44,097 nt of DNA from Thermoanaerobaculales bacterium (GCA_029938595.1 JAOZUP010000001.1:1774-45870), one strand, 5' to 3'; positions 6,446-31,281 are shown, numbered from the stretch's first letter. Numbers and translations: made by a program. Notes: generated by a model from the sequence alone, not told the origin.

Positions 6446-6625
6446 AGTCCGCGTTTCTCACCGCCTCGCTACTGCGGCCCGCGATATGCCGCAATCTGCG
6501 GCGTTTTCTCGCCTCGGGGTACTCAACGTACTGCCAAGTATGTCTCCGCGCCCCTCATGCTCAAAAACGCCACATCTCACAACATTTCGCGGGCCTCGCA
6601 AAGCGACGCGGTGAGAAATGCGAGC
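6446..6625. repeat. About 180-bp imperfect palindrome (IR-A)
   Basis: Outer arms gtccgcgtttctcaccgcctcgc (6446-6468) and gcgacgcggtgagaaatgcgagc (6603-6625) are reverse complements at 19/23. Further partial complementarity continues inward (cgctactgcggcccgcga vs tcgcgggcctcgcaaagcg). Confidence 0.75.
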
Positions 6626-6626
6626 T

Positions 6627-6770
6627 AGTTCTCGTCCAGAAACGGCGCTTTTTGGCAATTTCATCGTCAGACGGCGGATTCCCTTGTGCGGCGTACTCGA
6701 GTACGCCTCCGCGGAAATCCTTGTCTTCCTGGAACTTGAACAAAAATCGCTCGTTTCTGGATCGAGAACT
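6627..6770. repeat. 144-bp nested imperfect palindrome (IR-B) centred on CTCGAG
   Basis: Perfect 18-bp palindrome ggcgtactcgagtacgcc at 6690-6707. The pairs ggattccc/ggaaatcc (6676-6683 / 6713-6720) and agttctcgtccagaaacggcg / cgctcgtttctggatcgagaact (6627-6647 / 6748-6770, 21 matches with two 1-nt bulges) are all concentric on 6698/6699. Confidence 0.85.
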
Positions 6771-6854
6771 GCGCAGTTCCCACCAGAGTTTCTGGATGGG
6801 AACGAGCTATCATCCGGTGGTGAACACGAAGCAGTTGGAAATAGGGGTTTTCGC

Positions 6855-7727
6855 ATGATGGACCCAATGGCGGGAGTCGTCGTGGTTCATTTTGGAAATC
6901 CCGAATCGACCCTGCGCTGCTTAGCCTCGGTTTCCGAGGATCCGTCGGAGGTGGAGCGACGCATAGCCGTGGTGGACAACTCGGGCAATTTCGACGCTCG
7001 GCGATGCGATCCCGGCGTCACGGTGGTCAGCTGCCCCGACAACCCGGGCTACGGAGCGGGCGCCAACGCGGGTCTTGTCGAGATCGACCAGGAACGAGAG
7101 TGCACCCTGTACCTTGTCCTCAACAACGACACGGTTATCTGCCCGGGCTTTCTGACCGCCGCGGCGCATGCGCTCGAGGTAGGGGTGGGAGCCGCGGGCG
7201 GACCGGTCCGCGACGCGACCGAACCGTCCCGCCTCTGGTACGCGGGCGGGGGCATTAACTTCGCCACCGGAACGGTGTGGCAGCGGCAGTCCGAGGCAGC
7301 TTCAAAGAGACGTCGTGATGTCGGCTTCATCCCCGCGACGGCGATGGCGGTTTTGCCGGCGGCCTGGCGGGCGGTGGGAGGGTTCGACCCCCGGTTCTTC
7401 CTTTACAACGAGGACGTGGACCTCTGTCTGCGTCTGCGGCGGACTGGATGGCGGTTGTTGTTCGAGCCTGGAATGATATGTGAGCATCGGCTCGGCGGCG
7501 CCACCGGTTCCAACGAACGGTCACCGCTGTATCTCGAGAATCTCACCCGGACCCGGCTCCTGCCGTTCAGATCGTGGCCTTACCGGCTCTACCTGGCGGG
7601 GCTCCACACCGCGTACAATTCTGCGCGCGTTCTCGGGCTCGGGCTGCAGTACGGATTCCGGTGCGGGCCGTACGTGTCGGCGGTGGCGCGAGGCCAATTT
7701 CATGCTCTGGAGACGGTGTTCGACTAG
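6855..7727 (+). CDS. Family 2 glycosyltransferase
   Basis: From ATG 6855: MMDPMAGVVVVHFGNPESTLRCLASV, then VVDNSGN, NPGYGAGANAGL, LNNDTV, YNEDVDLCLRLRRTGWRL. The track ORF start at 6618 runs through non-coding palindromes. Confidence 0.8.
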   Translation: MMDPMAGVVVVHFGNPESTLRCLASVSEDPSEVERRIAVVDNSGNFDARRCDPGVTVVSCPDNPGYGAGANAGLVEIDQERECTLYLVLNNDTVICPGFLTAAAHALEVGVGAAGGPVRDATEPSRLWYAGGGINFATGTVWQRQSEAASKRRRDVGFIPATAMAVLPAAWRAVGGFDPRFFLYNEDVDLCLRLRRTGWRLLFEPGMICEHRLGGATGSNERSPLYLENLTRTRLLPFRSWPYRLYLAGLHTAYNSARVLGLGLQYGFRCGPYVSAVARGQFHALETVFD

Positions 7728-7774
7728 GGAGTTTCTTGAGCGGGTTATGGCGATTGGGCATGCGATCGAGCGCC

Positions 7775-7908
7775 GAAGGCGCGACAGATTCATAGCCTGG
7801 GGCGTCAGCCCCAGGTGGCGAGTACCACAAGACCATGGAGCCCTGAAAGGGCGACAGATTGTGGCTGCGGCGTCAGCCGCGGCCACCATCTTCCGGTTGT
7901 CTGTCGCC
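7775..7908. repeat. Two degenerate tandem hairpin repeat units (REP-like) between convergent genes
   Basis: Unit 1 is gaaggcgcgacagattcatagcctggggcgtcagccccaggtgg. Unit 2 is gaaagggcgacagattgtggctgcggcgtcagccgcggccacc. Each has a GC stem around the loop cgtcag. An inverted gtctgtcgcc lies at 7899-7908. Confidence 0.75.
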
Positions 7909-7980
7909 GCTTCGCGGCTGGTCCGAGCCATTACGACGAAACGCGGGAGGTAACTGAGAGTGTGAGTTGGGGCGGTCGCC

Positions 7981-9147
7981 TCAGCGTTGCGCCGCCTGGT
8001 AGGTCTCATCGAGAAGCGTCACTATGCGAGCCGGATCGTGACGGGTCGCAACCATATTTCGTCCGGCCACGGTCAGCTGCTTCCGGAGCCCTGCCTCCTC
8101 ATTGAGACGCCGGATGGCGTCAGCAAATTCGCGCCCATCACGGGCCAGGAGGAGCTCGCGGCCGTCATGGGCCTCGAGGCCTCGCACGGCCTCGGGTGTG
8201 GCGACGACGGGTATGCCGCGCGCCCAAGCCTCGATGATTTTCATCCGGATGCCCGAAGCGATGCGCAGGGGAACCACCAGGATTGCCCCGCGGCAGAAGA
8301 TGTGCCTGCTGTTGGAGGGTGACGGGTGCCAGGATGTTGCTGGCGTGCCCAGGCTGGCGTCGATCCCGAATACGTGGGCGTGGGCCTTGGGGTTCTCGCG
8401 CCGAACGTCGTCCCAGATCGAGTCGAAGAACCACGAGATCGAATCGCGATTCGGGAGCCAGCCGCCCCCCAGTAAGAGGAGAGGTGGAGCACCCGATAGC
8501 TCCTCGCTGCCGGTGGGGAGATCGCTGGGGAAGGGTGGGGGAATAATGTGGATGCGGTTCGCGCGCATGCCACGGCCGCCCGCCAGCGCTTCACCGTCGC
8601 AGCGGGTGAGCACCACCGTTGTCGATGCCGTGCGAACTGCGCGCGCCTCGGCTGCCGCCATCTTTCTCGCCTCGCCGCGGGCGATCCATCCAAACCTCGG
8701 GCGGACGCCGCCCACCATACGCCACAGATGGCTCTCGACGTTCTGCGCGCGGAGGACGATCGGTGGCCGCCCGACCCGTTCAGGGACATTGAAGATCGAC
8801 TGCACCTGCTCCGCGTGAATGACGTCGTATTCCTGCTGGTCGAGCTCCTCGCGTATGACCTGCAGGAGTGCTTTGTGGGTGTGGCGAAGAACAGACATCG
8901 GTTGCCCCGTGAGCTGTGCCCTGATCATTGATGGCAGTAGTCGTCCGGGCCGGCAGGGAACGAGGCGTGGACGGCAGACCTGAGCGATGTGCTCAACCGC
9001 CCCCTGGCGAGTGGCGCCGAGATCCGGTGCGACAAACGTCACCCGGTGCCCGCGAGAAGAAAGCTCCCTCAACGTGTGCCACATCAGGAGCCTGCCGCCA
9101 TCCGATGTCGGGAACGGCGCCTTGGTTGCGATGAAGAGAACCCGCAT
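7981..9147 (-). CDS. Family 4 (group 1) glycosyltransferase
   Basis: From ATG 9147: MRVLFIATKAPFPTSDGGRLLMWHTL. C-terminal GT4 motif: GIRMKIIEAWARGIPVVATPEAVRGLE. The track N-terminus (to 9279) is probably an extension. Confidence 0.8.
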   Translation of the reverse strand: MRVLFIATKAPFPTSDGGRLLMWHTLRELSSRGHRVTFVAPDLGATRQGAVEHIAQVCRPRLVPCRPGRLLPSMIRAQLTGQPMSVLRHTHKALLQVIREELDQQEYDVIHAEQVQSIFNVPERVGRPPIVLRAQNVESHLWRMVGGVRPRFGWIARGEARKMAAAEARAVRTASTTVVLTRCDGEALAGGRGMRANRIHIIPPPFPSDLPTGSEELSGAPPLLLLGGGWLPNRDSISWFFDSIWDDVRRENPKAHAHVFGIDASLGTPATSWHPSPSNSRHIFCRGAILVVPLRIASGIRMKIIEAWARGIPVVATPEAVRGLEAHDGRELLLARDGREFADAIRRLNEEAGLRKQLTVAGRNMVATRHDPARIVTLLDETYQAAQR

Positions 9148-9294
9148 CCCTGTGGCGGTGGATGGACGACAGCCCGACGTCATCGCGTGGTCCGTGCGAG
9201 GGACGAATATGTTGACGACACGGTGACGGCCTCCGCGAGGATTGTCGCATGGCGTCAACCGTGGGCCGGCGCCTGTCACGTCGTGCTGCCGGAT

Positions 9295-10281
9295 TTATTG
9301 CGGGTGGCAGTTTGAGGTGTCCAGCTCCTCGAGCGCCTTCAGCGCATCGATGTATATGGAGGTTTCGGCCTGCCAGTGACTCCTGTGATCCTCCGAGACC
9401 AGCGGCGTTGCGAGACGGCGCCCGAGGAGGCGCAGTCTTCCGCCGATCTGCAGGGCACGGTTCGACCTTCGCGCTCCCGTCGATCCCCGTCGTTTGCGGG
9501 CGAAGCGCAGCAGGTCGGTCCACATGAACTCCGGATGTGCGGAACCCGCCGAACCTCCGGACTCCGAAATCGTACCGCCGTGATGATGGAGGACCGTGAA
9601 ATCTGGGAGAATCTTGATCTTCCAGCCCGCTTCGACCGCACTCTGGCAGAGGTCGAGATCCTGACAGTAAAAACGGTAGCCGAGGTCGAAGGGCCCGACC
9701 CCCTCCCAAACCGATCGTCGCACGGCCATGGCGGAACCCGCGACCCAGTCCACAGGTCCGCCGCCGGAGCCGGACGGGGGGCGCAACCAGCGCCAGCCCG
9801 GCATCCTGCCCAGGAGAGCCGGAATGCCGGAGGCGAGAGCAAAACACCATGCAGGTGTCGGTCTCCGGCCACCGCTCCACTGGGGCGCACCGTCCAGATG
9901 CTTGAGCGCTGCCCCCGCAATACCGAGATGCGGGTCTTCAGCGAATGCCCTGAACACGGCGCCGAGAGAGAAAGGCTCCACCTCGGTGTCGCTGTTGAGC
10001 AGGAGCAGTAGATCCCCCGACGCCCTGGCCATGCCGTGGTTTGCCGCGACCGAAAACCCTTCGCTCTGGGGCAGGCGGACCACCACGTGCCGAGGGTACT
10101 TGCGGAGCACCGAGTAGGCGGTGTTGTCCGAACTCCCGTCATCGACCACGACCACCTCGTCCGGCTGCGGGTCGCACAGCCACAGGGAGGCCAGACAGCG
10201 CAGGGTCAGCTCGCGGGTGTTGTGAGTCGGAACGACAACGGAAAGTTTCGGCATATTCGTCATCAGCGGTGAACCCATCAT
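9295..10281 (-). CDS. Family 2 glycosyltransferase
   Basis: Motifs: KLSVVVPTHNTRELTLRCLASL, VVVVDDGSSDNT, LLLLNSDTEV. The start is ambiguous among ATGs at 10281, 10263 and 10254. Confidence 0.8.
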   Translation of the reverse strand: MMGSPLMTNMPKLSVVVPTHNTRELTLRCLASLWLCDPQPDEVVVVDDGSSDNTAYSVLRKYPRHVVVRLPQSEGFSVAANHGMARASGDLLLLLNSDTEVEPFSLGAVFRAFAEDPHLGIAGAALKHLDGAPQWSGGRRPTPAWCFALASGIPALLGRMPGWRWLRPPSGSGGGPVDWVAGSAMAVRRSVWEGVGPFDLGYRFYCQDLDLCQSAVEAGWKIKILPDFTVLHHHGGTISESGGSAGSAHPEFMWTDLLRFARKRRGSTGARRSNRALQIGGRLRLLGRRLATPLVSEDHRSHWQAETSIYIDALKALEELDTSNCHPQ

Positions 10282-10324: not shown

Positions 10325-11161
10325 GTGGTGTCGATCACACAAATACCCATTCTCGTCAACTCGGCTGACGAGAAGTTCAGCAGCATCAAGGAACTCCGTG
10401 ATCTTTTCAACAACTCGCACCTGTTGATGAACCTCGTCCAGCGTGATCTCACGGTGCGTTACAAGCGGTCAGTGATCGGGTTCTTCTGGACAATGTTGAA
10501 TCCGCTTCTCCTCATGATCATCCTGACCATTGTCTTTTCCACCATTTTCCGATTCGCTGGGATCGAGCATTTCGAGACGTACTTCTTGTCTGAGTACCTG
10601 GTTTTCGGGTTCTTTTCCCAGACGACCACAACCGCGATGGGAAGCATGGGGTGGAACGCCTCACTCATGAAACGCGTGCGCGTACCAAAATCCATCTTTG
10701 CGATTTCCACCACAATCTCCGGGCTCGTCAACCTCGCTCTGGCATATATCCCGCTTTTCGCCATCATGATCGTTCGCGGCGCCCCAGTCTGCTCAACGGT
10801 CTTGATCTTGCCGTTGAGCTTCTTGATCATCGCCATGTTCACGTTAGGGGTGTCGCTGCTTCTATCGGCATTGGCTGTCTATTTCGATGACGTCCAACAG
10901 ATGTGGCAGGTGGGGACAATCGGCCTGATGTATCTGACCCCCATCATTTATCCAATCAGCATTATCCCGGAGAGGTGGCTCTGGTTGATTCGTATCAACC
11001 CTCTCACCCAGCTCTTCAAACTTGCCCGCGACCCGGTGTACAACTGCGCGCTGCCGTCGGCCCACGTGTTTACGGCCTCTCTAGTCGTATCGGTGGTCAC
11101 ACTTGGAGTGGGTTGGGTGGTTTTCAATCGCCTCGCACGAGGTTTCTACCTTCACATTTGA
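10325..11161 (+). CDS. wzm: ABC-2 type polysaccharide/teichoic-acid export permease (Wzm/TagG family)
   Basis: N-terminal signature LVQRDLTVRYKRSVIGFFWTMLNPLLLMIILTIVF, followed by about 6 hydrophobic segments. GTG start. Noticeably lower GC than the flanks. Confidence 0.85.
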   Translation: MVSITQIPILVNSADEKFSSIKELRDLFNNSHLLMNLVQRDLTVRYKRSVIGFFWTMLNPLLLMIILTIVFSTIFRFAGIEHFETYFLSEYLVFGFFSQTTTTAMGSMGWNASLMKRVRVPKSIFAISTTISGLVNLALAYIPLFAIMIVRGAPVCSTVLILPLSFLIIAMFTLGVSLLLSALAVYFDDVQQMWQVGTIGLMYLTPIIYPISIIPERWLWLIRINPLTQLFKLARDPVYNCALPSAHVFTASLVVSVVTLGVGWVVFNRLARGFYLHI

Positions 11162-11177
11162 GCGCTCTGGAGGACAG

Positions 11178-11969
11178 GTGGGCGAACCGGCAGTTGAGTT
11201 TCGAGACGTTTCGTTGCAGTATCGCCTGCTGTCGGAACGAGGCATCGTGTCCTTCAAGGAATGGGTGATTCGCCGGCTGACCTCTAAAATGACCTATCAG
11301 GAGCTGATCGCACTTTCACACGTGAGCGTTTCAGTCGAGAAGGGTCGTGCCCTGGGCGTCATCGGCCACAACGGTGCAGGAAAGTCGACCTTTTTACGAC
11401 TGGCGGCAGGTATTCTCGTTCCCACCGAAGGCGTGGCGATCATGCGTGGGCGGTTGGCGCCGGTCATCGAACTCGGACTGGGCTTCGAAGCAGAATTGAC
11501 TGGACGCGAAAACATTTTTTTCAACGGTGCCCTGCTCGGGCGATCGAAAGCTGAGATGGCGACACGTGTCGACGAAATCGTTGAGTTTGCCGAGCTGGCG
11601 GATTTCATCGACCAACCGATCCGCACCTACTCGACAGGGATGGTAGCCAGGCTCGCATTTGCGGTTGCGACGACGGTTGACGCCCAAGTCCTGCTCCTGG
11701 ACGAAGTGTTGTCGGTGGGAGATGAGAGCTTTCGTCGCAAATGCAACGAGCGGCTTGAAAGCTTCCGACAGGCCGGCGTCACCATCCTTCTCGTCTCACA
11801 TGATCTTGGCGCGGTGCAGAGCATCTGCGACGAAGCGGTGTGGCTCGAGCACGGATTGATCCGCGGACACGGACCGGCGTCGGAGATCGTGGCCCTGTAC
11901 AGGACGTCAGTAGGTGATGAAGCAGTCGTAGGTGGTGCGGTTGCGCCAGTCTCAGTGGTTCCAACCTGA
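11178..11969 (+). CDS. wzt: ABC polysaccharide export ATP-binding protein (Wzt/TagH family), short form without C-terminal extension
   Basis: Walker A GHNGAGKST, signature YSTGMVARLAFAV, Walker B LLLDEVLSVGD, H-loop VSHD. In-frame GTG at 11178 is preceded by GGAGGA (11169-11174), 16 nt after the wzm stop. Confidence 0.85.
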   Translation: MGEPAVEFRDVSLQYRLLSERGIVSFKEWVIRRLTSKMTYQELIALSHVSVSVEKGRALGVIGHNGAGKSTFLRLAAGILVPTEGVAIMRGRLAPVIELGLGFEAELTGRENIFFNGALLGRSKAEMATRVDEIVEFAELADFIDQPIRTYSTGMVARLAFAVATTVDAQVLLLDEVLSVGDESFRRKCNERLESFRQAGVTILLVSHDLGAVQSICDEAVWLEHGLIRGHGPASEIVALYRTSVGDEAVVGGAVAPVSVVPT

Positions 11970-11970
11970 C

Positions 11971-12846
11971 ATGGCCCGCCCGGTCATCTCGGTTGTCATC
12001 CCGACGCGCGATCGCTGCACGATCCTCCGGTTGACTCTCGAAGCGCTCGCCCGGCAGGAGGGCGTGGACGGCACATTCGAGGTCATTGTCGTCGACGATG
12101 GCTCGACCGACGGCACCCTCGAGATGCTGCGAACCAGTGACTTCTCGACGTTCGATTTGAGATCGGTCCCGCTGGAGCACGGCGGGCCGGCCCGTGCCCG
12201 CAACTGGGGCATCTCGGAGGCCACGGCTGAAAGGATTTTGCTTCTTGGCGACGACATGATCCCCGCCCCCGGGAACTTGAATATCCACCTCGCAGCTTCG
12301 GGCGAGCCCGAACGAGGGGTGCTGGGGATGATCGAGTGGGACCCGGAGCATGAGATTACTGACGTGATGCGGTTTCTCGCGCCCGAAGGTCCGCAGTTCT
12401 GGTTCAAAGGTCTTGAGGAAGGATCTCTCGTTCCAACGACGTCCCTCGTTAGCGCCAATCTTTCAGCACCCAGGCGGTGGTTTCTAGAGGAACCGTTTGA
12501 CGAGAGCTTCACAGAGGCCTGCATGGAAGACACCGAGCTCGGCTACCGGTGGTGGCGGCGAGGATGGGTTATTCGGTTCCGGCCCGGGGCGGTCTGTCAC
12601 CACCGCCATTCCTACCGAAGCATTGAGCCGTTTCTCGAACGACAGCGTCGTGCTGGACGTTGGACGCGGTTAGCGGTATGGCAGCATCCTGCTCTTTTTG
12701 CCACGTTAGTGGCCCGACCGGTAGCTTTGGCGCCGCTGCTGGCGGCTCGTACAGGTCTACGATTTCTCGGGGGCCGTGGCCGGCGTGACGATGTATGGGA
12801 CCTCCACTGCCGCTGGAAGTTTGTAACGGGTTTCGTCAGAGGCTAG
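11971..12846 (+). CDS. Family 2 glycosyltransferase
   Basis: MARPVISVVIPTRDRCTILRLTLEAL, VIVVDDGSTDGT, LLLGDDMIP. The ATG lies 1 nt after the wzt stop. Confidence 0.8.
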   Translation: MARPVISVVIPTRDRCTILRLTLEALARQEGVDGTFEVIVVDDGSTDGTLEMLRTSDFSTFDLRSVPLEHGGPARARNWGISEATAERILLLGDDMIPAPGNLNIHLAASGEPERGVLGMIEWDPEHEITDVMRFLAPEGPQFWFKGLEEGSLVPTTSLVSANLSAPRRWFLEEPFDESFTEACMEDTELGYRWWRRGWVIRFRPGAVCHHRHSYRSIEPFLERQRRAGRWTRLAVWQHPALFATLVARPVALAPLLAARTGLRFLGGRGRRDDVWDLHCRWKFVTGFVRG

Positions 12847-13016
12847 TGACCCTCGTCGGCCAAGTTCTTCCCGGAGCCGAGCTCATTCACGTAATTTGCT
12901 GTCAGGGGCGGCGGTGAGGTGGAGGTGCGGACTGGGCAGCCAAGCAGGACTGATTTCCAGATAAACGCCGCTGCCTGATAGGATAGAGCGCGTAGCCTGA
13001 TGGAGAAGCATCGACA

Positions 13017-15791
13017 GTGAGGATTTTGTCACGTTGCACCGAACTGGCCGGCAAGGCCATCACATCCTGCAAACCCCACATACCTTACATTGCACTGCTC
13101 TGGGGCCTCATCTGCATACCGTTTGGGCCGGTGATCTTCTCGGACGGCAGTCTCGTTCCGTCCGACATTCTTTACACAATGGAGCCCTGGTACTCCGAAC
13201 TCGGGGAGGTTGCCTCTTCCCACAACGTGAGTGGAGTCTTGACTCTGGACTCGATCGACGCTGTGTACACCGTACTCCCGGTTGCACATGCTACTCAACG
13301 CCAGTTGCGCGGAGGGCATCTACCGATCTGGGATCCGGACATACTTACCGGATTCCCGCTTGGAGCCTTTTCCCCGCTGTACCCTTTCCAGATTTTGGCA
13401 TACCTGATCCTCGCACCAGAGACCGCGCTGAATGCTCTGGTCATTTTCCACCTGTTCCTGATTAGCCTGTTTGGATATTTCGTGGTCACGAGCCTTGACG
13501 CCCATCCGCTGGCCGGTGTGCTGGCCGGGCTTGTGGCAGCGATTAACGCCATGGTTCTATACTATTTAATCGCGCCGGGGATGCTGCTGGCTATAGCTTG
13601 GATACTGGGCCCCTTCCTCTGCTTCATACGTTTCAGGAGAAGCGGGTGCTGGAGGTGGACCATCGCGGCGGGGCTCTGCTACGGGATGCTCCAACTTACG
13701 GCCAACCCCCAGCTGGTTCTCTACACCTCTCTCGCCTATGGATTCTACGTTCTCGTATGGTCTGGCACCGAGCTATGGCGCCGCGAATACGCGCGGGCCG
13801 GACGCTATCTCATGCACAGCATCGGCATGGTTCTGATAGGCGTTCTTATCGGTTTGCCCTCTCTGCTGTTGATGTATCACTTCAGCCTCGGGGTTCAACG
13901 GGCACCGCAGGTCAAGGTCTTCACCGAGCTCGCCTCGTGGATCAGGGTGATCGTGCCGGATTACTGGGGCACACCGTCAGAACTGGCACCGGGATTCAGT
14001 AACAACACCCGCCTCTACATCGGTGTCCTACCTCTCGTCCTGGCCGGCATCGGGGCTCTGGCCGCACGTAAGCTGGAAGCACGATGCTTTGCTTTCATCG
14101 CAGGCGCATTCGCGGCGGTAACGCTGGGATGGCAGCCGTTCTCCACGATCTTTTACCTGTCCATGCCAGAGCTGTTCCTGGATCACGGCCGGGTGTTGGT
14201 ACTTTCCAGCCTGTTGCTGGCGGTTTGCGCGGGCCTGGGAGCGGATGTCTTGCTCCGGAACAAGCGATACCGGAGCTGGGCTGGTGGTCTTCTCATGATG
14301 ATCGCGGCGGGAGTCGCGGGCATGCTGATAGTAGTTTTGACAAATCCAACGCTGCGTCAGAGCGATCCCTTCTTCCACGTCCGCCTGGAGGCGACGCAGC
14401 TCGCCCTGACAGTCACACTCGTCGGCCTGGCGGCGGTTGCCGCCATGAGCTGGACCTCGATGCGCGTGGCAGGAGTCGTGCTCATCCTCGCGGTCGCCTT
14501 CGACCTGTTCGCGACCTTTTGGCTCTTCTTTGGAATCTTTCCGGCGGGCCTGATGCTGCAGCCTCCTCTTATCGAGAGGCTTGCGGAGCGGGTCAACACC
14601 TCTGGCAGTGTTCCTGCACGCGTGTTCTTTGTGGAGGGCGACGTCAGCGGCCCAAAGCCCAAAGTCCTGACTTACTTTGACATTCCTCAGATAACAGGCT
14701 ACACGTCGCTGCCGTCGGAACGCTACAATCGCTATACATTTGCCAGCGGCGCCCGCCGCTACGAGAGTTGGTTCTGGCTGCGTTTCATGGAAGTTGAAAA
14801 GCCTCGGGTTCGACTTTTCGACGCGCTTGCGGCAGAGTACGTTCTTCTCTGGCGGGACGAGGTCATCGACGGGGAGCACCGGACTCCCTTGCTGGCTGAG
14901 GTGCCTCGCGAGGCGCTGCAGCTCTCACGGTATCAGCTGAGAACCCTGCCCGCGGAGGCTGCTGATCTGAAGATCGCTACCGACGTCCCGGAACACGGCC
15001 GCTCCTTCCTGCTGACCGGCCTTGCGGTGCTGGACGGCTCGATGGGCTACGAGATCAGAGTCGATGGGGAGTCCGTGCACAGCGGGCATCTGGCCAAGAC
15101 CACGGAGATTCCGTTTTGGAAAGCGCTGGCTACGGAATTGAGTCCTCACGCAGGACATTTGGTCACAATAGAGTTGCTGGTAACCCCTGGTCCGGGCGCC
15201 TCTTGGAGATGGGTCGATCCGCAACTGCACTTTAACCCCGAGGAGGCCGATCTGGAGTTGGTGGACGCTGGAGGCCTCCTTGTATACCGCAACCACAACG
15301 CCTTTCCTCGAGCCTGGCTTGTATCCGAAATCCTGGTTGTACCACCTGACGACCTGGACAGGGCCGAATCAGAAGTCAGCCGATCTGAGCTAGATCTTCG
15401 CCGAGTGGCGATCGTAGAGAGCGGGCAGCCGCTGAGCCTGGGCAGACCCAGCCCGTCTGACCGGGTTGAGATCACGCGCTACGAACCCTCCCTGGTCGAA
15501 GTCCATGTATCGACAACCGAGGCTCGCTTTCTAGTGATGCCAGATCTCTTCCACAAGGCGTGGCGAGCAAACATTGATGGAGAACCTTCGAGGATCTTTG
15601 CTACGAACCTGACGATGCGTGGTGTGTTGGTCGCACCCGGGCAGCATAGGGTGACCTTCGAGCTTGGGCCCCCGGGCTTCAGGCTGTCGTTGTTTTTCTC
15701 TGGTATTTCGATCCTCTTGTGTGTGTCGGCACTCGTCGTCACCGCATGCAAGCGGGGGGCGTGCACAGCGAAGGAGGATGCTCAGCCATGA
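13017..15791 (+). CDS. YfhO-like (GT-C-type) polytopic membrane protein
   Basis: 924-aa ORF with many TM segments in the first ~500 aa. HLPIWDPDILTGFPLG resembles the YfhO lPLWNPyifsG.P motif. It also has a large soluble region, a NHNAFPRAWLV motif and one terminal TM (LSLFFSGISILLCVSALVV). Family call is from motif memory only. Confidence 0.6.
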   Translation: MRILSRCTELAGKAITSCKPHIPYIALLWGLICIPFGPVIFSDGSLVPSDILYTMEPWYSELGEVASSHNVSGVLTLDSIDAVYTVLPVAHATQRQLRGGHLPIWDPDILTGFPLGAFSPLYPFQILAYLILAPETALNALVIFHLFLISLFGYFVVTSLDAHPLAGVLAGLVAAINAMVLYYLIAPGMLLAIAWILGPFLCFIRFRRSGCWRWTIAAGLCYGMLQLTANPQLVLYTSLAYGFYVLVWSGTELWRREYARAGRYLMHSIGMVLIGVLIGLPSLLLMYHFSLGVQRAPQVKVFTELASWIRVIVPDYWGTPSELAPGFSNNTRLYIGVLPLVLAGIGALAARKLEARCFAFIAGAFAAVTLGWQPFSTIFYLSMPELFLDHGRVLVLSSLLLAVCAGLGADVLLRNKRYRSWAGGLLMMIAAGVAGMLIVVLTNPTLRQSDPFFHVRLEATQLALTVTLVGLAAVAAMSWTSMRVAGVVLILAVAFDLFATFWLFFGIFPAGLMLQPPLIERLAERVNTSGSVPARVFFVEGDVSGPKPKVLTYFDIPQITGYTSLPSERYNRYTFASGARRYESWFWLRFMEVEKPRVRLFDALAAEYVLLWRDEVIDGEHRTPLLAEVPREALQLSRYQLRTLPAEAADLKIATDVPEHGRSFLLTGLAVLDGSMGYEIRVDGESVHSGHLAKTTEIPFWKALATELSPHAGHLVTIELLVTPGPGASWRWVDPQLHFNPEEADLELVDAGGLLVYRNHNAFPRAWLVSEILVVPPDDLDRAESEVSRSELDLRRVAIVESGQPLSLGRPSPSDRVEITRYEPSLVEVHVSTTEARFLVMPDLFHKAWRANIDGEPSRIFATNLTMRGVLVAPGQHRVTFELGPPGFRLSLFFSGISILLCVSALVVTACKRGACTAKEDAQP

Positions 15792-15918
15792 TAGAGACTC
15801 GTGCGGCAATCCCCGCAGACCTGGCACAGGTTCGGCTCAACGAATTCGGCCGCCAATGGACCGCCGTCGGTCCTGAGGTTCTCGCGATTCTTCGCGTTGG
15901 AGCGATCCCTGTCTCGCC

Positions 15919-18441
15919 TTATTGAGTGGACCCGACGGAGGACGACCAGGCGCTCGTGTCGCCAGACTCAACTCCATCGGCAAAGACAAGACCCACCGAC
16001 GGTTCGCCCACCCATACTGTCGTTTCGGAGAACGCGCCACCTTCTTCGGTGGTGGCAAAGATCCGGTACGTCGTGGTCACATTCGGGGAGACGGCCACCG
16101 AACCGGACGCCCCTTTCTCGCCGGGTGTCAGGCGGACGCCTGAGTCGAGGTCAACGTCAAGATACGTTCCTGCGGTCAACGTCCACTGAAGTGTTGCCGC
16201 TTCACCGCTGCTGATTACCAAGGGGGTGGCTGACAATACGATGGCTGATTCCGGCGCTGCGGTCACAAAAACCTGCGCCTGGACGCCGTCAACGTCCAAA
16301 GCGGAGATACCAGTGCTCGCCGACCTGGTTCCCGTAGTCGCTGCGAGTGGCGACCCGTTCAGGGTCGCCGTGGAACCGCTCCAGGCCCAGGCCACGAATG
16401 CCTCGGTGCTGCCATCCCCATCACCGGCGGCGCCCACTGGCAAGACCTTCGAGGGCACTGCGTTCAGGACGGCAATCGATGGGACGGACGCGAGCGCCAC
16501 ATTGTTGTCCTGAGACTTCTCGGTACTCGGCACGCCTCCATTTCGAGACACCGTGAGGGCGTTGAGTTGGGAGACGTTTTGCGGACTGACCAGAGAGTCC
16601 CTGTATACGTCCGTGCCAAATGCCGCCGAGTGGATTTCGTTGCGGTTGTAGACGACCCCGTTGATTGGGCCCGCTGCGCGGTCGTCATCAAAGATCGGCA
16701 GCCCGTCATTCGACGCGAACACGCAATCCTCCACCGCTCCCCCCATTGGGAGAGGCGAGCCCCCGAAGCTCACGATCGGCCCGGAAAAAATGGCCGCTCC
16801 AAATGATTGCCATGCCGTTTCTGCGGTTCCGGGGCTGAAAGCATTTTCCAGGAAGACACATTGGTCGAGATCGAGTTGACTGCCTTGCGCAAAGATCGCG
16901 CCACCGAACTGTTCCGCTGAGCTGTTGGCAAAACCGCTCCCGAAAATAGAACCGACAGAGTCGATGACGAATCTGAGGGCTCCTCCCGTGCTCTCGGAAC
17001 CAATGGCGTCGGAGTCTATGAATAAGGAGTCAGTGACGGTGAGGTCGCCAAGCTCCACGCTCAATCCGCCTCCCAGACCTTTGCCGCCTTGTGGCGTTTC
17101 AGTGACATCGCAGTCGCTGAACACGACGTTCTGCAAGACGACTGAGGAACGGTTGGCCGAGGTGGGACCCATCTCGGCAACTCCAGCGAAACCGTACTCC
17201 CTGTTTTTGTCGCCGGCAACGTAGGCGCCTCCGGCAGTTTGAGCCACAGTCGTTACCGAACCGTACCTTCCCTGGATCAATGTGTTCGTTATCACGAGGG
17301 TGCCGTTGGGCCGATTTGTCGATCCGTCAACCGCAGAATCGGCGGAGGCTATGGCCACTGCCGCTCCGAATCCAGTGGACGCATCCCGTCCATCCACCCA
17401 GTTGCCCTGGAAAACCGAATCGTGGATCTCGAGGCGTGCCCGATAGGAGTTGGCGCCACCACCCTTTTCAGCTGTGTTGGTCACGAATCGAGAGTTAAAC
17501 ACCCTCGCGATCGTCTGGTTTTCTACGTGGAGTCCGCCGGCTTCGGGCGGTGAAGGGGTCGTAACAGAGTCATCCGCTTCTGCTCGATTGTCGATGAACG
17601 TACAGTTGGCGACCAGGACCTCCGTCCTTGGAACCTCGACCGGATCCTGCCAGGTTCCGATGGCGTAAAGGCCCCCACCAACGTATCCGGCGTCGTTAGC
17701 CGACAGACGGGTATTCGTGATGCGGAGGGTCGCGTTTCCCACGTGGATCCCGCCGCCGGCGGCGGTGTTTCGGTGATTGGGCAGGGACACGGAGTTGTTG
17801 TTGAATTGCGAGCTGTGGATTACGGCGATGGAGTCGGTGCTGACCCGCAGTCCTCCAGCTTCGTTTTTGGCGACGTTGCCCTGCCACACGCACCGCAGGA
17901 AGTGGGCTGCAGAGGCAGTGACCACCGCGACGCCGCCTCCACCCGTTGTCGGGGCCAATGACGAGTTGTTTTCGAAGGAGCAGTCGATGAACGTGGCGTC
18001 GGCTCTGCTCAACGTGACGCCACCGGCTATCCCGTCGCTGGTCGACCTGCCATTGCGAATCACCAGGTTCTGAAACACTATGGATCCGCCCGCCGATGGC
18101 GTCGAGTTGTGGAGTTGGAAAACCGGTTGAATTCCTGCTCCGTCCAGGACTACGGATTCGGCCACGAGTGCCCGAATGGTGAATGCCTTTCCGAGATTGT
18201 TGTAAGCGAACCCTCCGGAATACGTGCCTGCAGCCAGCTCGACGATCCCGCCGTCTGGAACCATCGAAATGGCCTGGTCCAGGGTCACGGCATCGCCCGG
18301 AACGTGAATGACCGTCGTGCTGTATCCCGGTGTACTGGTGAAGGCAGCCGCCATCACCACGATCGGCACGAATAGACGTTGCCATCGGTCTTTTGGGAAT
18401 GTCCAGAAAATCAACGATCGACCCCTATTCCACTTTAACAA
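15919..18441 (-). CDS. Secreted right-handed parallel beta-helix repeat protein (Pmp-like GG[AGL][ILV] / FxxN repeats)
   Basis: 840-aa ORF with signal-like N-terminus KDRWQRLFVPIVVMAAAFTS. Many repeats, for example GGVTLSRADATFIDCSFENNSS, GGLHVENQTIARVFNSRFVTNTA and FGGAIFAQGSQLDLDQCVFLENAF. The C-terminal tail is FADGVESGDTSAWSSSVGSTQ. The start is uncertain: TTG 18441, or TTG 18414 preceded by AGGGG. Confidence 0.7.
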   Translation of the reverse strand: MLKWNRGRSLIFWTFPKDRWQRLFVPIVVMAAAFTSTPGYSTTVIHVPGDAVTLDQAISMVPDGGIVELAAGTYSGGFAYNNLGKAFTIRALVAESVVLDGAGIQPVFQLHNSTPSAGGSIVFQNLVIRNGRSTSDGIAGGVTLSRADATFIDCSFENNSSLAPTTGGGGVAVVTASAAHFLRCVWQGNVAKNEAGGLRVSTDSIAVIHSSQFNNNSVSLPNHRNTAAGGGIHVGNATLRITNTRLSANDAGYVGGGLYAIGTWQDPVEVPRTEVLVANCTFIDNRAEADDSVTTPSPPEAGGLHVENQTIARVFNSRFVTNTAEKGGGANSYRARLEIHDSVFQGNWVDGRDASTGFGAAVAIASADSAVDGSTNRPNGTLVITNTLIQGRYGSVTTVAQTAGGAYVAGDKNREYGFAGVAEMGPTSANRSSVVLQNVVFSDCDVTETPQGGKGLGGGLSVELGDLTVTDSLFIDSDAIGSESTGGALRFVIDSVGSIFGSGFANSSAEQFGGAIFAQGSQLDLDQCVFLENAFSPGTAETAWQSFGAAIFSGPIVSFGGSPLPMGGAVEDCVFASNDGLPIFDDDRAAGPINGVVYNRNEIHSAAFGTDVYRDSLVSPQNVSQLNALTVSRNGGVPSTEKSQDNNVALASVPSIAVLNAVPSKVLPVGAAGDGDGSTEAFVAWAWSGSTATLNGSPLAATTGTRSASTGISALDVDGVQAQVFVTAAPESAIVLSATPLVISSGEAATLQWTLTAGTYLDVDLDSGVRLTPGEKGASGSVAVSPNVTTTYRIFATTEEGGAFSETTVWVGEPSVGLVFADGVESGDTSAWSSSVGSTQ

Positions 18442-18495
18442 GAGGTTGACTCACGTTCGGCGTGTTTAACAAGAGATTGACTCGCGTTCTGCGTG
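18434..18495 (-). promoter_or_regulatory. Head-to-tail tandem 31-bp direct repeat at the 5' end of the beta-helix gene
   Basis: tttaacaagaggttgactcacgttcggcgtg and tttaacaagagattgactcgcgttctgcgtg are 28/31 identical. In gene sense each unit reads ...GAAC-N16-TTAAA.... A regulatory role is inferred, not shown. Confidence 0.5.
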
Positions 18496-18564: not shown

Positions 18565-20538
18565 TCACTCCGGGCTGTTCGGAATCAGATATCCGAGAGC
18601 ACGGAGTCGTTCGACCTCTTCATCGGTAAGCGACGAATCGCTTGGAACAGAGACGACAGCCTCGTCAACCATTCCGGTGGTTGTTGCGACAATCGACTGT
18701 TGGCGAAGCGAAGTGGCGATGTGCCGCCATTCCGGGTCCTCGATCAGGTTGTTGCTTTCCGTCGGATCGTTTTGGACATCGAACAACTGTTCGCCGCTTG
18801 CGATACGGGCCACCAGTGGTGAGTTGCCCTTTGGATGGAGATGACGTTTCAGCACGTAGTCTCGAGGAAACGACCAACGGGAAATGTATTTGATGTGCTC
18901 GGTACGCACATAGTGTGCACCTGTGTTTGAGCTCGTGCCAAAGGCCAGTGGTGAGTCTTCCTTCCGGTCTCCGCTGATGGTCGGTAAAAGGCTCCGCCCT
19001 CGGAACGTCTCCGGGGCCGGTACTCCGATTTCGTCGAGAATGGTCGGTGCGACGTCAATGAGTCGGGTCAGCTCGTTCACTCGAAGGCCTGCAAAGCGGT
19101 TGTCCCCTAGCTTTATGACAAGGGGGATACGGATTTCGTCCTCCTTGAGGAACAACCCGTGTCCAATCCAGATCTCGTGATCAAATAAGCTCTCGCCATG
19201 GTCAGAGGTGACGACAATTGTCGACTTCTCGTAAAGCCCCGAGTCTTGGAGGAACTCGAGCATTTCACCAATGGCTGCATCCACTCTCATGATTCCCTCG
19301 TCGTACGCCGCAATGGTGTCTTCGACGCACCGGAAACGATCCAAATCAAGGTAGTCGTGGTACCCGAGAGTCTTGAAAACCGACATCGGTGGGTAACGAG
19401 TTTCCTCCGGATTGATGAGCTGCCGTAGCCGGCCGGCAAATGGAGACTGTGTCCCGTACGGGCCGTGCACATCCATGATGTGCCAGAAGACAAACACCCG
19501 ATCAGCGGATGCGTCAGAGAGCCATTCCAAGAGACGCTGTTTTGTGATTCCGACCCCCCACCGCGGGGCCGGTCGCGGCGGCGCGGTGGCGTCGTAGTGA
19601 TCGAACCCCCGGTCGAATCCGAATCGACCCAGCCAAGGAGTGTCCACAAATCCGGCCGAAGTCCATCCGGCCTCCGAGGTTGCCTCGGCAATCGTCACCA
19701 ATTCACTCGGAATGTCCTTCTCTGCCGTGGTGCCATGGAAGAAGGGGTCCGTCGAGGTGAAAAGTGAGGCATGTGAAGGAATCGTCCAGGGCGATGGCGC
19801 AACCGTTTTGTTGAATACGACGCTGTCCTCAGCGAGTCGGATCAAGTTGGGAGTGGGGGCCATCCCCCCGTAAAGCTCCATTCGATCAGATCTGAGAGTG
19901 TCTACCGATATCAACAGGACCATCCCTGTTGGACGGATCGTCGATGAAATCTCGTACTTGATATGTGGATCTCCCCAGACCACCTGAGCGTTTTCGCACG
20001 ATCCGCTCTGACACTCAGTTCGCAGCACGAGTTGGGTCGATTGACTGGAGCAGGGATCGAGAGAAACCTCGCGATCACCCCAGCTTTGGGCTGTGCGATC
20101 AGAAACATTCGACAGCTTCTCGCGGAGCAATTCAACCTCGGCGCCACCCTGGCCAAGACATGTGATGTGAGCCACTATTCCGTCCCCCGGGTGTCCAGGA
20201 GCCGCAACAGTTGAAGCCAAACCGAGCAGAAGCCGATTTCCTGGCCCAGATGGTACTTTCTGAAAAACCAGTGCGGACTCGACAGCCTGACCAATCGACA
20301 ACCGGCGATCGAATCCTAATTGAATCCACCCGAGAGTGGCGTCGGGTTTCTCGTTACCATGCCGTTTCGCAGTGTGGAGGCTCGCCACCAGGTGGTATTC
20401 CTGCCGCGATGTTGTTGGTGCGATTTCTCGGGCGCTATCGCAACACACCGTCGCTGAAAAAAGCCCCGGGACCAATACGAGTCGGGCAAGACGGGCTGGA
20501 CTAATGCGAGCACGATTGAATAGAATCCTACGTGTCAT
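18565..20538 (-). CDS. Alkaline-phosphatase-superfamily (sulfatase-fold) protein, Thr-type, with N-terminal beta-rich module
   Basis: LLISVDTLRSD, SPWTIPSHASLFTS (Thr at the Cys/Ser formylglycine position, His at the Arg position) and VVTSDHGES. N-terminus has a hydrophobic signal, LVLVPGLFSATVCC. The tail is EEVERLRALGYLIPNSPE. Confidence 0.8.
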   Translation of the reverse strand: MTRRILFNRARISPARLARLVLVPGLFSATVCCDSAREIAPTTSRQEYHLVASLHTAKRHGNEKPDATLGWIQLGFDRRLSIGQAVESALVFQKVPSGPGNRLLLGLASTVAAPGHPGDGIVAHITCLGQGGAEVELLREKLSNVSDRTAQSWGDREVSLDPCSSQSTQLVLRTECQSGSCENAQVVWGDPHIKYEISSTIRPTGMVLLISVDTLRSDRMELYGGMAPTPNLIRLAEDSVVFNKTVAPSPWTIPSHASLFTSTDPFFHGTTAEKDIPSELVTIAEATSEAGWTSAGFVDTPWLGRFGFDRGFDHYDATAPPRPAPRWGVGITKQRLLEWLSDASADRVFVFWHIMDVHGPYGTQSPFAGRLRQLINPEETRYPPMSVFKTLGYHDYLDLDRFRCVEDTIAAYDEGIMRVDAAIGEMLEFLQDSGLYEKSTIVVTSDHGESLFDHEIWIGHGLFLKEDEIRIPLVIKLGDNRFAGLRVNELTRLIDVAPTILDEIGVPAPETFRGRSLLPTISGDRKEDSPLAFGTSSNTGAHYVRTEHIKYISRWSFPRDYVLKRHLHPKGNSPLVARIASGEQLFDVQNDPTESNNLIEDPEWRHIATSLRQQSIVATTTGMVDEAVVSVPSDSSLTDEEVERLRALGYLIPNSPE

Positions 20539-20597
20539 CAGTTGCCGATTGTAACAGCTGTAGCTGGGGAGATTTCAGTATGTTCTTCGAGACGGGA

Positions 20598-20617
20598 AAC
20601 GCCGAATCGTGAGTCAA
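20598..20617 (+). promoter_or_regulatory. Third copy of the 19-nt core of the 31-bp repeat, in sense orientation upstream of the GT2 gene
   Basis: aacgccgaatcgtgagtcaa. Its reverse complement ttgactcacgattcggcgtt matches 18446-18464 at 18 positions with a 1-nt insertion. Confidence 0.45.
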
Positions 20618-20628
20618 CACGCTTCTTC

Positions 20629-21783
20629 ATGATTCCTGTTAGTGACACCATGCGGCGTAGTAAAAGTCGGCCGGAATTTTCGGTCGTGATGCCGACGTAC
20701 AACCGGGCCGCCACCCTGAAGAAGATGCTCGGTGCCTGGGAGAGACAGACTCCGGGTGATCTCCCTTTCGAGGTCGTAGTGGTGGATGACGGGTCCCAGG
20801 ACGAGACGCCCGAAGTGATTGCCTGTTGGCAACCGTCGCGGTACTCGCTGGTAGGGCTGCGACAGGAAAACCAGGGACCGGCGATGGCGCGGAACTACGG
20901 GTTGGCGGCATCAATGGGGAAGTGGGTCCTCTTCACCGGTGATGACATCGAGCCGGCCCCCGACCTGTTGAAATGGCACATCGATTCCCACCGGCACCTG
21001 AATGACGATCGTTGGGCCGTACTGGGAAGAATTTCGTGGCCTCGAGAGCTCGAGGTCACATCGACCATGCGCCACGTCGACGGGGTCGGAGCGCAACAGT
21101 TCAGCTACCACTTCATGAAGGATGGCGACGAGTTCGATTATCGTCATTTCTACACCTCCAACGTTTCGGCATCGAGACGAATGCTCGACGAAGAGACTGC
21201 TGGCTTTAGCGGTGACTTCTCCGCGGCAGCGTTCGAGGATGCCGAGTACTCGTACCGACTCTGCCGCCGTGGGATGCGGATCGTTTACCAGGCGTCCGCG
21301 CGAGCTTGGCACCACCACCCCTATGATGCCCGCTCGTTCTTCAAGCGTCAGGTTTCGTGTGGGCGGATGGCCGCAGTTCTGATTCGCAAATGGCCGCAAA
21401 CACGGCGGCTCATCGGCGGCCACCAGATCGCGCGATCGCGCCTTCGGGAAAGGCTAATTTTTGGCGCCCACCGGCGGCGTTTGAGAGAGGTTGGGGAGTG
21501 TCTCGAAACGGTGGAGGATTGTGCGCTCGAGCTCGCGTCGGGGTTCGATGTGCCGGCTACGACCGTGGTCGATCCGTTTCTGCAGAAGCTCTTCCACTAC
21601 GGCTACCTCAAGGGTCTCGTGACGGCAAACAAGAGCGAGGGCGTGGCGAGGCGCCTGTGCGCCTTCTGGTTCACAAACCTAGTGGGCGATGGTTTTTTGA
21701 GCATTCGGCATGAGTTCGAAAAACGAGGCTCAAAAGCCGATGCCGAGAACCTGAACGGGCTTCTCGAATTAACTCGGCGTTAG
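20629..21783 (+). CDS. Family 2 glycosyltransferase with ~150-aa C-terminal extension
   Basis: EFSVVMPTYNRAATLKKML, VVVVDDGSQDET, VLFTGDDIEP. Start is uncertain: ATG 20629 or 20650. The track ORF begins at TTG 20542. Confidence 0.75.
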   Translation: MIPVSDTMRRSKSRPEFSVVMPTYNRAATLKKMLGAWERQTPGDLPFEVVVVDDGSQDETPEVIACWQPSRYSLVGLRQENQGPAMARNYGLAASMGKWVLFTGDDIEPAPDLLKWHIDSHRHLNDDRWAVLGRISWPRELEVTSTMRHVDGVGAQQFSYHFMKDGDEFDYRHFYTSNVSASRRMLDEETAGFSGDFSAAAFEDAEYSYRLCRRGMRIVYQASARAWHHHPYDARSFFKRQVSCGRMAAVLIRKWPQTRRLIGGHQIARSRLRERLIFGAHRRRLREVGECLETVEDCALELASGFDVPATTVVDPFLQKLFHYGYLKGLVTANKSEGVARRLCAFWFTNLVGDGFLSIRHEFEKRGSKADAENLNGLLELTRR

Positions 21784-26456: not shown

Positions 26457-26589
26457 CGTGGTGTGCCCACGATACACCAGGGCGGCGGTCGGCGAATAAA
26501 TCCTCAAGCCTCCAATGCGATCGATGTTCCTCGAGAAGTCGACTGGCCGCCAGAACAGTACCGGGAAACTTGGCGGCGGGCTCTGTAGA

Positions 26590-27570: not shown

Positions 27571-27610
27571 CTCGCTGACGACCCGAAACGCTCACCGAGG
27601 AACCCACTGG

Positions 27611-31077: not shown

Positions 31078-31281
31078 CAGACGAATCTCCTTCGAAATCG
31101 AGGGTAACTCCCTCCACAAACGAGCCGACACTCACTGCCGGCCATTTAAACCGCCACGGAGTCCCAAACATCCTACCCTCATCCGTTACCTCCGGGCCTC
31201 GAACTCGTCTTATACTACAAGGGTTGGGAAAGCGTTCGGCTTGACCGATCCATAAAACCGCTAAGGGGAGGTACGACGCTC

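Follow-up and report, generated by a model that had tools for sequence, protein, structure and literature searches.

A stretch of 44,097 nucleotides (nt) from a Thermoanaerobaculales bacterium (GCA_029938595.1, JAOZUP010000001.1:1774-45870; hereafter the window) was analysed around four co-directional genes, which encode the permease (Wzm) and the ATPase (Wzt) of a polysaccharide exporter, a family 2 glycosyltransferase (GT2c) and a polytopic protein of 924 amino acids (aa) that resembles YfhO. The window is read here as holding a surface-glycan island of variable content that follows the ABC-transporter-dependent pathway and in which an accessory YfhO-type glycosyltransferase of the GT-C fold adds a sugar to the exported polymer. 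This reading is held to be probable, with a substantial share of doubt. An earlier note on the same DNA had interpreted the four genes as a teichoic-acid-style module, with the GT2 and the YfhO-like protein paired in the manner of CsbB and YfhO of Firmicutes. The genome is a metagenome-assembled genome (MAG) of 4.1 Mb that is 84% complete.

The genes that carry the argument are as follows:

10325-11161, + strand: wzm, ABC-2 polysaccharide-export permease, 278 aa, about 6 transmembrane (TM) segments (PF01061, 8.5e-15; NCBIfam Wzm/RfbD)
11178-11969, + strand: wzt, short nucleotide-binding subunit, 263 aa (PF00005, 7.6e-19)
11971-12846, + strand: GT2c, putative cytoplasmic Leloir-type GT-A glycosyltransferase, 291 aa, conserved core (PF00535, 3.9e-20)
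12847-13016, no strand: 170-nt spacer, left junction of the accessory segment before the YfhO-like gene (sequence reading)
13017-15791, + strand: predicted divergent YfhO-superfamily GT-C protein, 924 aa, accessory and specific to this genome (PF09586, 30.1 bits)
15919-18441, - strand: beta-helix protein, 840 aa, convergent with the YfhO-like gene, conserved core (PF13229, 3.8e-7)
18565-20538, - strand: AP1, sulfatase-fold lipoprotein of the threonine (Thr) type, the other accessory gene confined to this genome (PF00884, 6.5e-31)

The wzm, wzt, GT2c and YfhO-like genes were all confirmed at these coordinates, and the families that the earlier note had assigned to them proved correct with Pfam (ABC2_membrane, ABC_tran, Glycos_transf_2 and YfhO). 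The tight same-strand spacing that it had described was likewise borne out by sequence reading: the TGA stop of wzm (11159-11161) lies 16 nt before the GTG start of wzt (11178), which follows a GGAGGA Shine-Dalgarno sequence, and the TGA stop of wzt (11967-11969) lies 1 nt before the ATG start of GT2c (11971). Such close spacing of wzm, wzt and GT2c is ordinary operon structure and is not unusual in itself. The gap of 170 nt between the TAG stop of GT2c (12844-12846) and the GTG start of the YfhO-like gene (13017) had gone unmentioned. A scan of this spacer for consensus promoters and terminators was empty, and a search for repeats and target-site duplications around the YfhO-like gene returned only short matches at chance level.

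Accessory status of the YfhO-like gene

The comparison of synteny is the decisive result of the analysis. In the following, G000 denotes the genome under study and G024, G010, G005 and G001 denote genomes of the same genus. The conserved order of the island is oppF-oppD-hyp402 followed by GT2a-GT4a-GT2b-wzm-wzt-GT2c-bhelix-GT2d-GT2e-GT4b-GT4c-(GT2f-GT4GT2), with 50-81% amino acid identity. Orthologues of GT2a, GT4a and GT2b (50-66%) occur in the same order in G024, G001, G010 and G005, the stretch from GT2d to GT4c is kept in G024, G010 and G005, and the GT4-GT2 fusion is kept in G010 and G024; in G010, the right boundary of the island is formed by LiaF, anti-sigma, ECF and RadC genes. Within this framework, G024, G010 and G005 each have wzm-wzt-GT2c (59-81% identity), with GT2c (59-60%) directly after wzt, and lack the YfhO-like gene. 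Because these sister species keep the three genes without the YfhO-like gene, wzm-wzt-GT2c appears to be a conserved core trio that functions independently of the GT-C protein.

In G024 and G010, the orthologue of the beta-helix gene (62-65%) directly abuts GT2c, and the stop codons of the two convergent genes are about 20-70 nt apart. The interval from GT2c to the beta-helix gene (12847-15918) is thus empty in these two genomes, carries the YfhO-like gene in G000 and is occupied in G005 by another membrane protein, a polytopic one of 545 aa encoded on the opposite strand with a sub-threshold DUF2079 match (L125 9632-11269). In G001, synteny stops after wzt. Neither the polytopic protein at the G005 position nor the one near wzt of G001 matches the YfhO profile, and no orthologue of the 924-aa protein was found in 24 genomes of the genus. 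The interval is a hot spot, and the gene for the 924-aa GT-C protein is an accessory gene within it. AP1 likewise has no match at its position in G024 and G010. The earlier note had named a non-conserved synteny, together with a GT2 lacking any membrane association, as grounds against its proposal; the synteny of the four genes is not conserved, and what was found is essentially that outcome.

A divergent YfhO-superfamily protein with a predicted GT-C fold

The match of the 924-aa protein to PF09586 (YfhO) scores 30.1 bits against a cut-off of 28.5 and places only residues 817-894 on profile positions 756-834. It is marginal when taken alone, and it is backed by relatives, fold and transitive homology. 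A search of 5.8 billion proteins gave only four close relatives, which come from metagenomes and share 47-53% identity; the other matches form a tail of less than 30%. PF09586 is carried by all 19 first-round relatives. An exhaustive phmmer search returned 23,036 representatives at E<=1e-3, many of which align over the membrane domain (residues ~27-620) plus the C-terminal domain (~700-915). Through residues ~27-620, phmmer links the protein to P0026, P0047 and P0063 (E 8e-57 to 2e-31). Since these three match the TM domain of YfhO (PF09586 positions 26-596, E 1.8e-20 to 4.6e-31), the N-terminal domain is YfhO-like by transitive homology. A profile made from five close homologues detected no relative in the genome contigs, and searches of PDB sequences with the protein and with a 60-sequence profile gave nothing useful, no YfhO structure having been solved.

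An AlphaFold2 model based on a 60-sequence alignment reached a pLDDT of 93.3 and a pTM of 0.92. Foldseek comparison with the PDB placed AftD and EmbB, two mycobacterial arabinofuranosyltransferases, first, followed by STT3, ArnT and PglB, and the C-terminal beta-sandwiches matched carbohydrate-binding-type domains of CITase, BcsB and GH2 enzymes. In the model, 13 TM helices precede a beta-sandwich domain of 386 aa (502-887), and a final TM anchor (888-910) follows it. The first loop (41-133) contains D50, E56 and D81, which are conserved among 60 relatives. With the helices arranged in this way, the count of lysine and arginine is 12 inside and 2 outside, which places the first loop and the 386-aa domain outside the membrane. 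Divergent as it is, the protein is accordingly predicted to be a true GT-C glycosyltransferase of the YfhO superfamily that would act on the outer side of the inner membrane. The earlier description of a YfhO-like polytopic protein was upheld, no different GT-C or non-GT family having emerged, and its suggestion of extracytoplasmic action agrees with the predicted position of the GT-C catalytic side outside the membrane. Among the NCBIfam models, there is also a weak match to the protein-glycosylating PgfM2 (4.9e-4).

The closest homologues elsewhere lie inside glycan clusters rich in glycosyltransferases, methyltransferases and PhyH proteins. They include a tandem pair of YfhO-like genes on one metagenome contig (L007 174-5739), and the contig of another close homologue, P0003, has a pair of GT2 and GtrA genes 4 kb downstream.

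GT2c and the proposed CsbB-YfhO pair

The top NCBIfam matches of GT2c are EpsD (6e-44) and MftF, with no ArnC, GtrB or DPM-type model among the matches. In the PDB, its best matches are chondroitin synthase (2z87) and TarP (5tze), with GalT1 and PglI also found and neither GtrB nor DPMS among the best. Hydropathy shows a single marginal segment (241-259) that is interrupted by Arg, which is not the pair of C-terminal helices typical of GtrB and CsbB; the GtrB-like GT2 that the genome does encode, on contig C178, has two strong C-terminal TM helices (257-275 and 298-316). A hydropathy scan of the other island GT2s except GT2f (26515-27570) showed no TM helices. The matches to EpsD, MftF, chondroitin synthase and TarP and the missing paired helices rule out a CsbB/GtrB-type polyprenyl-phosphate GT2 identity for GT2c. 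A conserved GT2/YfhO pair was rejected as well, as GT2c bears no relation to the GT2 that adjoins the nearest YfhO-like homologue (L006). The pairing put forward in the earlier note is thus not sustained: GT2c resembles cytoplasmic chain-building enzymes, is conserved where the GT-C gene is missing and is most simply a cytoplasmic Leloir-type member of the conserved core, as judged from its sequence matches.

Exporter and envelope type

The glycan island comprises Wzm/Wzt, 11 glycosyltransferase genes and a methyltransferase. Adjacent Wzm and Wzt genes amid cytoplasmic glycosyltransferases, with no Wzx, Wzy or Wzy_C among the window open reading frames (ORFs) scanned, identify the ABC-transporter-dependent pathway. 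Neither a ligase nor an initiating phosphoglycosyltransferase turned up in the window, no search having been aimed at the latter. By Pfam, the Wzt of 263 aa has no C-terminal carbohydrate-binding extension. For both Wzm and Wzt, the top NCBIfam models are of the galactan-export type, and Wzt scores better against Wzt/RfbE (1.3e-62) than against TagH (2e-56), both under their equivalog cut-offs. Within the genus, the orthologues of Wzm share 81% (G024), 74% (G010), 72% (G005) and 70% (G001) identity, within an overall range of 67-81%, and those of Wzt in sister species share 67-80%. Among the 80 loci across phyla whose Wzt is most closely related to this one, 73 keep wzm and wzt as a pair; the nearest Wzm/Wzt (55-56%) belong to Thermoanaerobaculia MAGs. 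A YfhO-like ORF lies <=10 kb away in a single one of these 80 loci (L051, from an Actinomycetota MAG), and a GT2c-like gene adjoins wzt in none, so that the four genes do not form a module of wide distribution.

The genome encodes LpxC (contig C145 4588-5388) and, outside the window, four Wzy_C/WaaL-like genes. A TagF/TarL-type polyol-phosphate polymerase (PF04464) is absent from the genome at its completeness of 84%, a B. subtilis control being positive. These gene contents indicate a diderm organism that is probably lipopolysaccharide (LPS)-bearing. Given a diderm host that has LpxC and lacks TagF/TarL, Wzm/Wzt are best compared with ABC-transporter-dependent O-antigen and capsule-like pathways, and LpxC together with the missing polymerase argues against the teichoic-acid-style reading. 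The LpxC match lies inside an open frame of 441 aa, longer than stand-alone LpxC, which suggests a fusion protein.

The earlier note had also pointed to Thr-type LtaS/EptA-like neighbours. Four sulfatase-fold proteins of the window do carry Thr at the nucleophile site (WTIPSHASLFTS in AP1, variants of it in the others), but their N-termini are of the lipoprotein type and they are soluble, without the polytopic domain of LtaS and EptA or any other multi-TM domain. Arylsulfatase and PehA are their best NCBIfam models, and LtaS/EptA reach just 1e-5 to 1e-3. The sulfatase-fold genes are variable between species. A phospho-substituted polymer is possible; it is supported by no result obtained here.

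Linkage of YfhO-like genes to Wzm/Wzt across the order

In a survey of 41 genomes of the order, YfhO-like genes were found in 40, with several copies each. Of the 101 copies listed, 35 lie <=10 kb from a Wzm gene, 23 of these <=3 kb, and the expectation by chance for a Wzm gene within 10 kb is ~1.7% (from ~3.4 Wzm genes per 4-Mb genome). The connection of YfhO-like genes with Wzm/Wzt exporters drawn in the earlier note is therefore statistically supported at the level of the lineage. The spacings between YfhO-like and Wzm genes recur (~0.2, 1.9 and 5.5 kb), which points to conserved locus types. One of them is represented by a second locus of the genome under study, on contig C407 (L100 6223-10554), where a wzt of 418 aa and wzm are divergent from a YfhO-like gene of 741 aa, next to a radical-SAM/SPASM enzyme, a GT4, a GT2 and a GNAT-like gene; at least 6 congeners share this arrangement, in which wzm and the YfhO-like gene are ~0.2 kb apart. 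A third YfhO-like paralogue, of 675 aa, lies on contig C135 (L101) between two PMT_2-like GT-C proteins without an exporter beside it, making up a cluster of three outward-facing transferases.

Wzy_C/WaaL-family genes often share the conserved wzm-wzt-YfhO-like loci, some of which encode one or two large Wzy_C-family proteins (e.g. G039:C113, G030:C4, G036:C77 and G032:C2). Because of this, YfhO-like proteins are probably not a simple replacement of the ligase, and the idea that YfhO-like and Wzy_C proteins are mutually exclusive partners of Wzm in a ligase role is weakened by their frequent co-occurrence.

A survey of this one flippase family found GtrA proteins in six of the 41 genomes. A search of the genome under study for GtrA gave one, on contig C178, and none in the window. 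It belongs to a group of genes on the minus strand (L099 4218-9504) that encodes a hexapeptide acyltransferase, a 164-aa ORF, GtrA, the GtrB-like GT2, a DegT aminotransferase and a PMT_2/ArnT-like GT-C protein. This operon resembles the Arn type and looks like a self-contained system for the transfer of a lipid-linked aminosugar.

Proposed mechanism and alternatives

In the proposed mechanism, the GT2 and GT4 enzymes of the island, GT2c included, would build a polyprenyl-diphosphate-linked polymer in the cytoplasm, which Wzm/Wzt would bring to the periplasmic face. The GT-C protein would span the inner membrane, its catalytic loop and carbohydrate-binding-like domain facing the periplasm. There it would most likely transfer a sugar to the polymer after export, the donor being lipid-phosphate-linked; donor synthase and flippase, which the locus lacks, would have to be encoded elsewhere. 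The result would be a post-export decoration of the seroconversion type, restricted to this species. The gene families, the GT-C fold, the outward topology, the accessory status and the linkage to Wzm/Wzt across the lineage are results of the analysis; we infer that the acceptor is the polymer exported by Wzm/Wzt, that the donor is a polyprenyl-phosphate monosaccharide and that the outcome is glycan diversification. From the earlier interpretation, this mechanism retains the gene families, the outward-facing GT-C protein and the linkage to Wzm/Wzt, and drops the csbB-type pairing, the conserved synteny and the teichoic style.

Several points weigh against it. The YfhO match of the GT-C protein lies just 1.6 bits over the Pfam threshold and spans 78 residues, and its closest homologues have no wzm/wzt nearby, as far as the available contigs extend. 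Every island GT2 is also found in species lacking the GT-C gene, so that no donor-making enzyme was acquired with it, and neither a polyprenyl-phosphate GT2 nor a flippase is co-located or co-acquired with it. The sole GtrA/GtrB-like pair sits in the separate Arn-like operon, which has a PMT_2 GT-C of its own. Within the order, GtrA is missing from 35 of the 41 genomes despite near-universal YfhO-like genes; with GtrA so rare, the canonical three-component scheme cannot hold for the order in general and may not apply to this locus. Moreover, absences elsewhere in an incomplete MAG are provisional.

The scarcity of GtrA would be explained if the GT-C protein were an en bloc transferase or polymerase that uses the polyprenyl-diphosphate-linked glycan exported by Wzm/Wzt itself as donor, with a second glycan, lipid A-core, a lipid or a protein as acceptor. 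The ABC exporter would then serve as the flippase and GtrA/GtrB would be unneeded, in line with the presence of YfhO-like genes in 40 of 41 genomes against GtrA in 6, the 35% of YfhO-like genes beside Wzm/Wzt, the lack of a co-acquired donor synthase or flippase and the occurrence of PglB and STT3, which use diphosphate-linked oligosaccharides, among the fold matches. However, sister species run the same core island without the GT-C protein, which cannot then be an essential transfer step, and the frequent Wzy_C/WaaL-family genes in wzm-wzt-YfhO-like loci of relatives suggest that the ligase or polymerase role is probably filled. The rarity of GtrA concerns one flippase family, beside which there are Wzx-type, MATE and SMR flippases, and all characterised YfhO proteins use monophosphate-linked monosaccharides (PMC8035078). 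For this gene, en bloc transfer is therefore considered unlikely. The same idea can be extended to the order, where YfhO-superfamily GT-C proteins, which no GtrB-type GT2 accompanies, and Wzm/Wzt would form two-part systems, the ABC transporter supplying a lipid-linked glycan donor for en bloc transfer or grafting, and the window gene would be an accessory example. This activity is undescribed for the YfhO family, and the extension is given an equally small chance.

It is also conceivable that the GT-C protein has nothing to do with the exported polymer, that it glycosylates proteins (in the manner of PMT or PgfM) or some other envelope molecule, and that it merely landed in a recombination hot spot. 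The gap of 170 nt that separates its gene from the operon, its independent insertion, the weak PgfM2 match and the third paralogue, placed among PMT_2-like genes with no exporter beside it, would all fit. Such a chance position is set against the strong lineage-wide linkage to Wzm/Wzt, the resemblance of the C-terminal domain to the polysaccharide-binding modules of AftD, CITase and BcsB, and the location of the closest homologues, all of which lie within glycosyltransferase-rich glycan clusters; an unrelated function is thus regarded as improbable. Far less credible still is the model of the earlier note, in which GT2c and the YfhO-like protein act as a csbB-yfhO-type pair on a phosphate-bearing teichoic-like polymer, with TagG/H-like export and LtaS/EptA-like modification. 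The good score of Wzt against TagH and the four window sulfatase-fold proteins with Thr at the nucleophile position speak for it, and since AP1 and the GT-C gene, each confined to this genome, lie on either side of the beta-helix gene, a joint add-on of sugar and phospho-substituent is conceivable. Nevertheless, GT2c falls outside the CsbB/GtrB type and persists where the GT-C gene is missing, LpxC is present, the genome has no TagF/TarL polymerase, Wzt scores better against Wzt/RfbE than against TagH, and the Thr-type lipoproteins do not have the polytopic lipid-donor-binding domain of LtaS, EptA and GacH.

Comparison with known systems

To the earlier note, no such system was known from this kind of organism, yet equivalent logic is known in Gram-negative bacteria, mycobacteria and Firmicutes (PMC11127046, PMC8035078). 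Post-export decoration by GT-C enzymes is a known strategy, of which this locus would be a further case; besides the three settings described next, it is established for the rhamnose polysaccharides of streptococci. In Firmicutes, the three-component system CsbB/GtcA/YfhO glycosylates the lipoteichoic acid of B. subtilis and S. aureus (PMC5836110, PMC8035078), and in L. monocytogenes 1/2a it glycosylates wall teichoic acid exported by TagGH/TarGH, with csbB/gtcA unlinked from yfhO (PMC8035078, PMC5836110). The 924-aa protein shares the GT-C family PF09586 with this system, as well as the arrangement of polytopic N-domain, large outside C-domain and terminal TM segment. The Listeria case comes closest in that its acceptor is an ABC-2-exported polymer and its GT2 and flippase genes are unlinked from yfhO. 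Here, however, the bacterium is a diderm that has LpxC but no polyol-phosphate polymerase, the adjoining GT2 does not resemble CsbB, just 6 of 41 genomes of the order have GtrA/GtcA, and the gene is a species-specific accessory whose product is so divergent that Pfam matches 78 residues.

Gram-negative O antigens are glycosylated in the periplasm after polymerisation by GtrABC in Shigella and Salmonella, by a three-component addition of galactose to the ABC-exported O2a of Klebsiella and, in Citrobacter youngae, by ORF12 (GT136), which has a carbohydrate-binding module (CBM) (PMC11127046). These systems share with the proposed mechanism a diderm host, a polymer that is finished in the cytoplasm, exported (in Klebsiella by Wzm/Wzt) and then modified by a GT-C enzyme with a lipid-linked donor, an extra carbohydrate-binding-like domain on the GT-C protein, and the accessory nature of the modification genes, which drive antigenic diversity there. 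They differ in that the enzyme here belongs to the YfhO superfamily and not to the GtrC type or GT136, has neither donor synthase nor flippase beside it and is known from sequence and model. In mycobacterial arabinogalactan, galactan is exported by Wzm-Wzt and then extended by the GT-C enzymes AftA-D and EmbA/B (PDB 6w98, 6x0o; PMC13018209). The sequence of ABC-2 export followed by outside GT-C enzymes with CBM-like domains is the same, AftD and EmbB are the top structural matches of the model, and the galactan-export models score best for Wzm and Wzt. However, there is no sequence-level relation to Aft/Emb, no genes of the decaprenyl-phospho-arabinose pathway were seen, and the arabinan machinery is an essential multi-enzyme one, compared with the single accessory GT-C protein here.

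GacH is the glycerol-phosphate transferase of the group A carbohydrate cluster of streptococci. In this cluster, GacI/K/L take part in side-chain addition (PMC8035078), as does GacJ. An ABC exporter (GacDE), an outside GT-C protein and an alkaline-phosphatase-superfamily enzyme (GacH) occur together there, as they do in the window, a combination of the kind to which the earlier note had pointed. GacL, by contrast, is of the PMT_2 type and not of the YfhO type, GacI is a genuine polyprenyl-phosphate GT2, and GacH has a polytopic membrane domain, unlike the soluble Thr-type lipoproteins of the window.

If the proposed mechanism holds, an uncultured diderm lineage varies its surface polysaccharide by slotting different outward-facing membrane transferases into one hot spot of an ABC-exporter island whose remainder is conserved, an environmental counterpart of the phage-borne or accessory seroconversion genes of enterobacteria. 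It would also bring LPS-bearing bacteria into the range of the YfhO family, whose studied members have all come from Firmicutes. As the order has many YfhO-like enzymes and almost no GtrA, how donors reach the GT-C proteins is a point worth following. For annotation, the locus serves as a warning that adjacency of a GT2 and a YfhO-like gene is, by itself, no basis for calling a csbB-yfhO pair.

Other genes of the window

The remaining features of the island are as follows:

6618-10281, no strand: conserved left part of the island with GT2a, GT4a and GT2b (Pfam GT2/GT4)
6618-7727, + strand: GT2a
7981-9279, - strand: GT4a
9295-10281, - strand: GT2b, divergent from wzm
20542-31131, no strand: remaining glycan island with GT2d, GT2e, GT4b, GT4c, GT2f, a GT4-GT2 fusion of 968 aa and a methyltransferase (Pfam)

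The four sulfatase-fold proteins (18565-20538, 33956-35371, 35504-36952 and 37255-40266) have a common C-terminal motif, L-[RK]-A-L-G-Y-[LIV], with an acidic stretch before it. G010 has neither AP2-AP4 nor the methyltransferase, and G024 has two other paralogues (~30% identity). A tandem repeat of 31 nt is found at 18434-18495, at one end of AP1. DedA proteins have been implicated in the recycling of undecaprenyl-phosphate, and a DedA/VTT-domain membrane protein is encoded 3.5 kb to the left of the island (2426-3130, - strand), with a match of 29.1 bits that is below the Pfam cut-off of 33.9.

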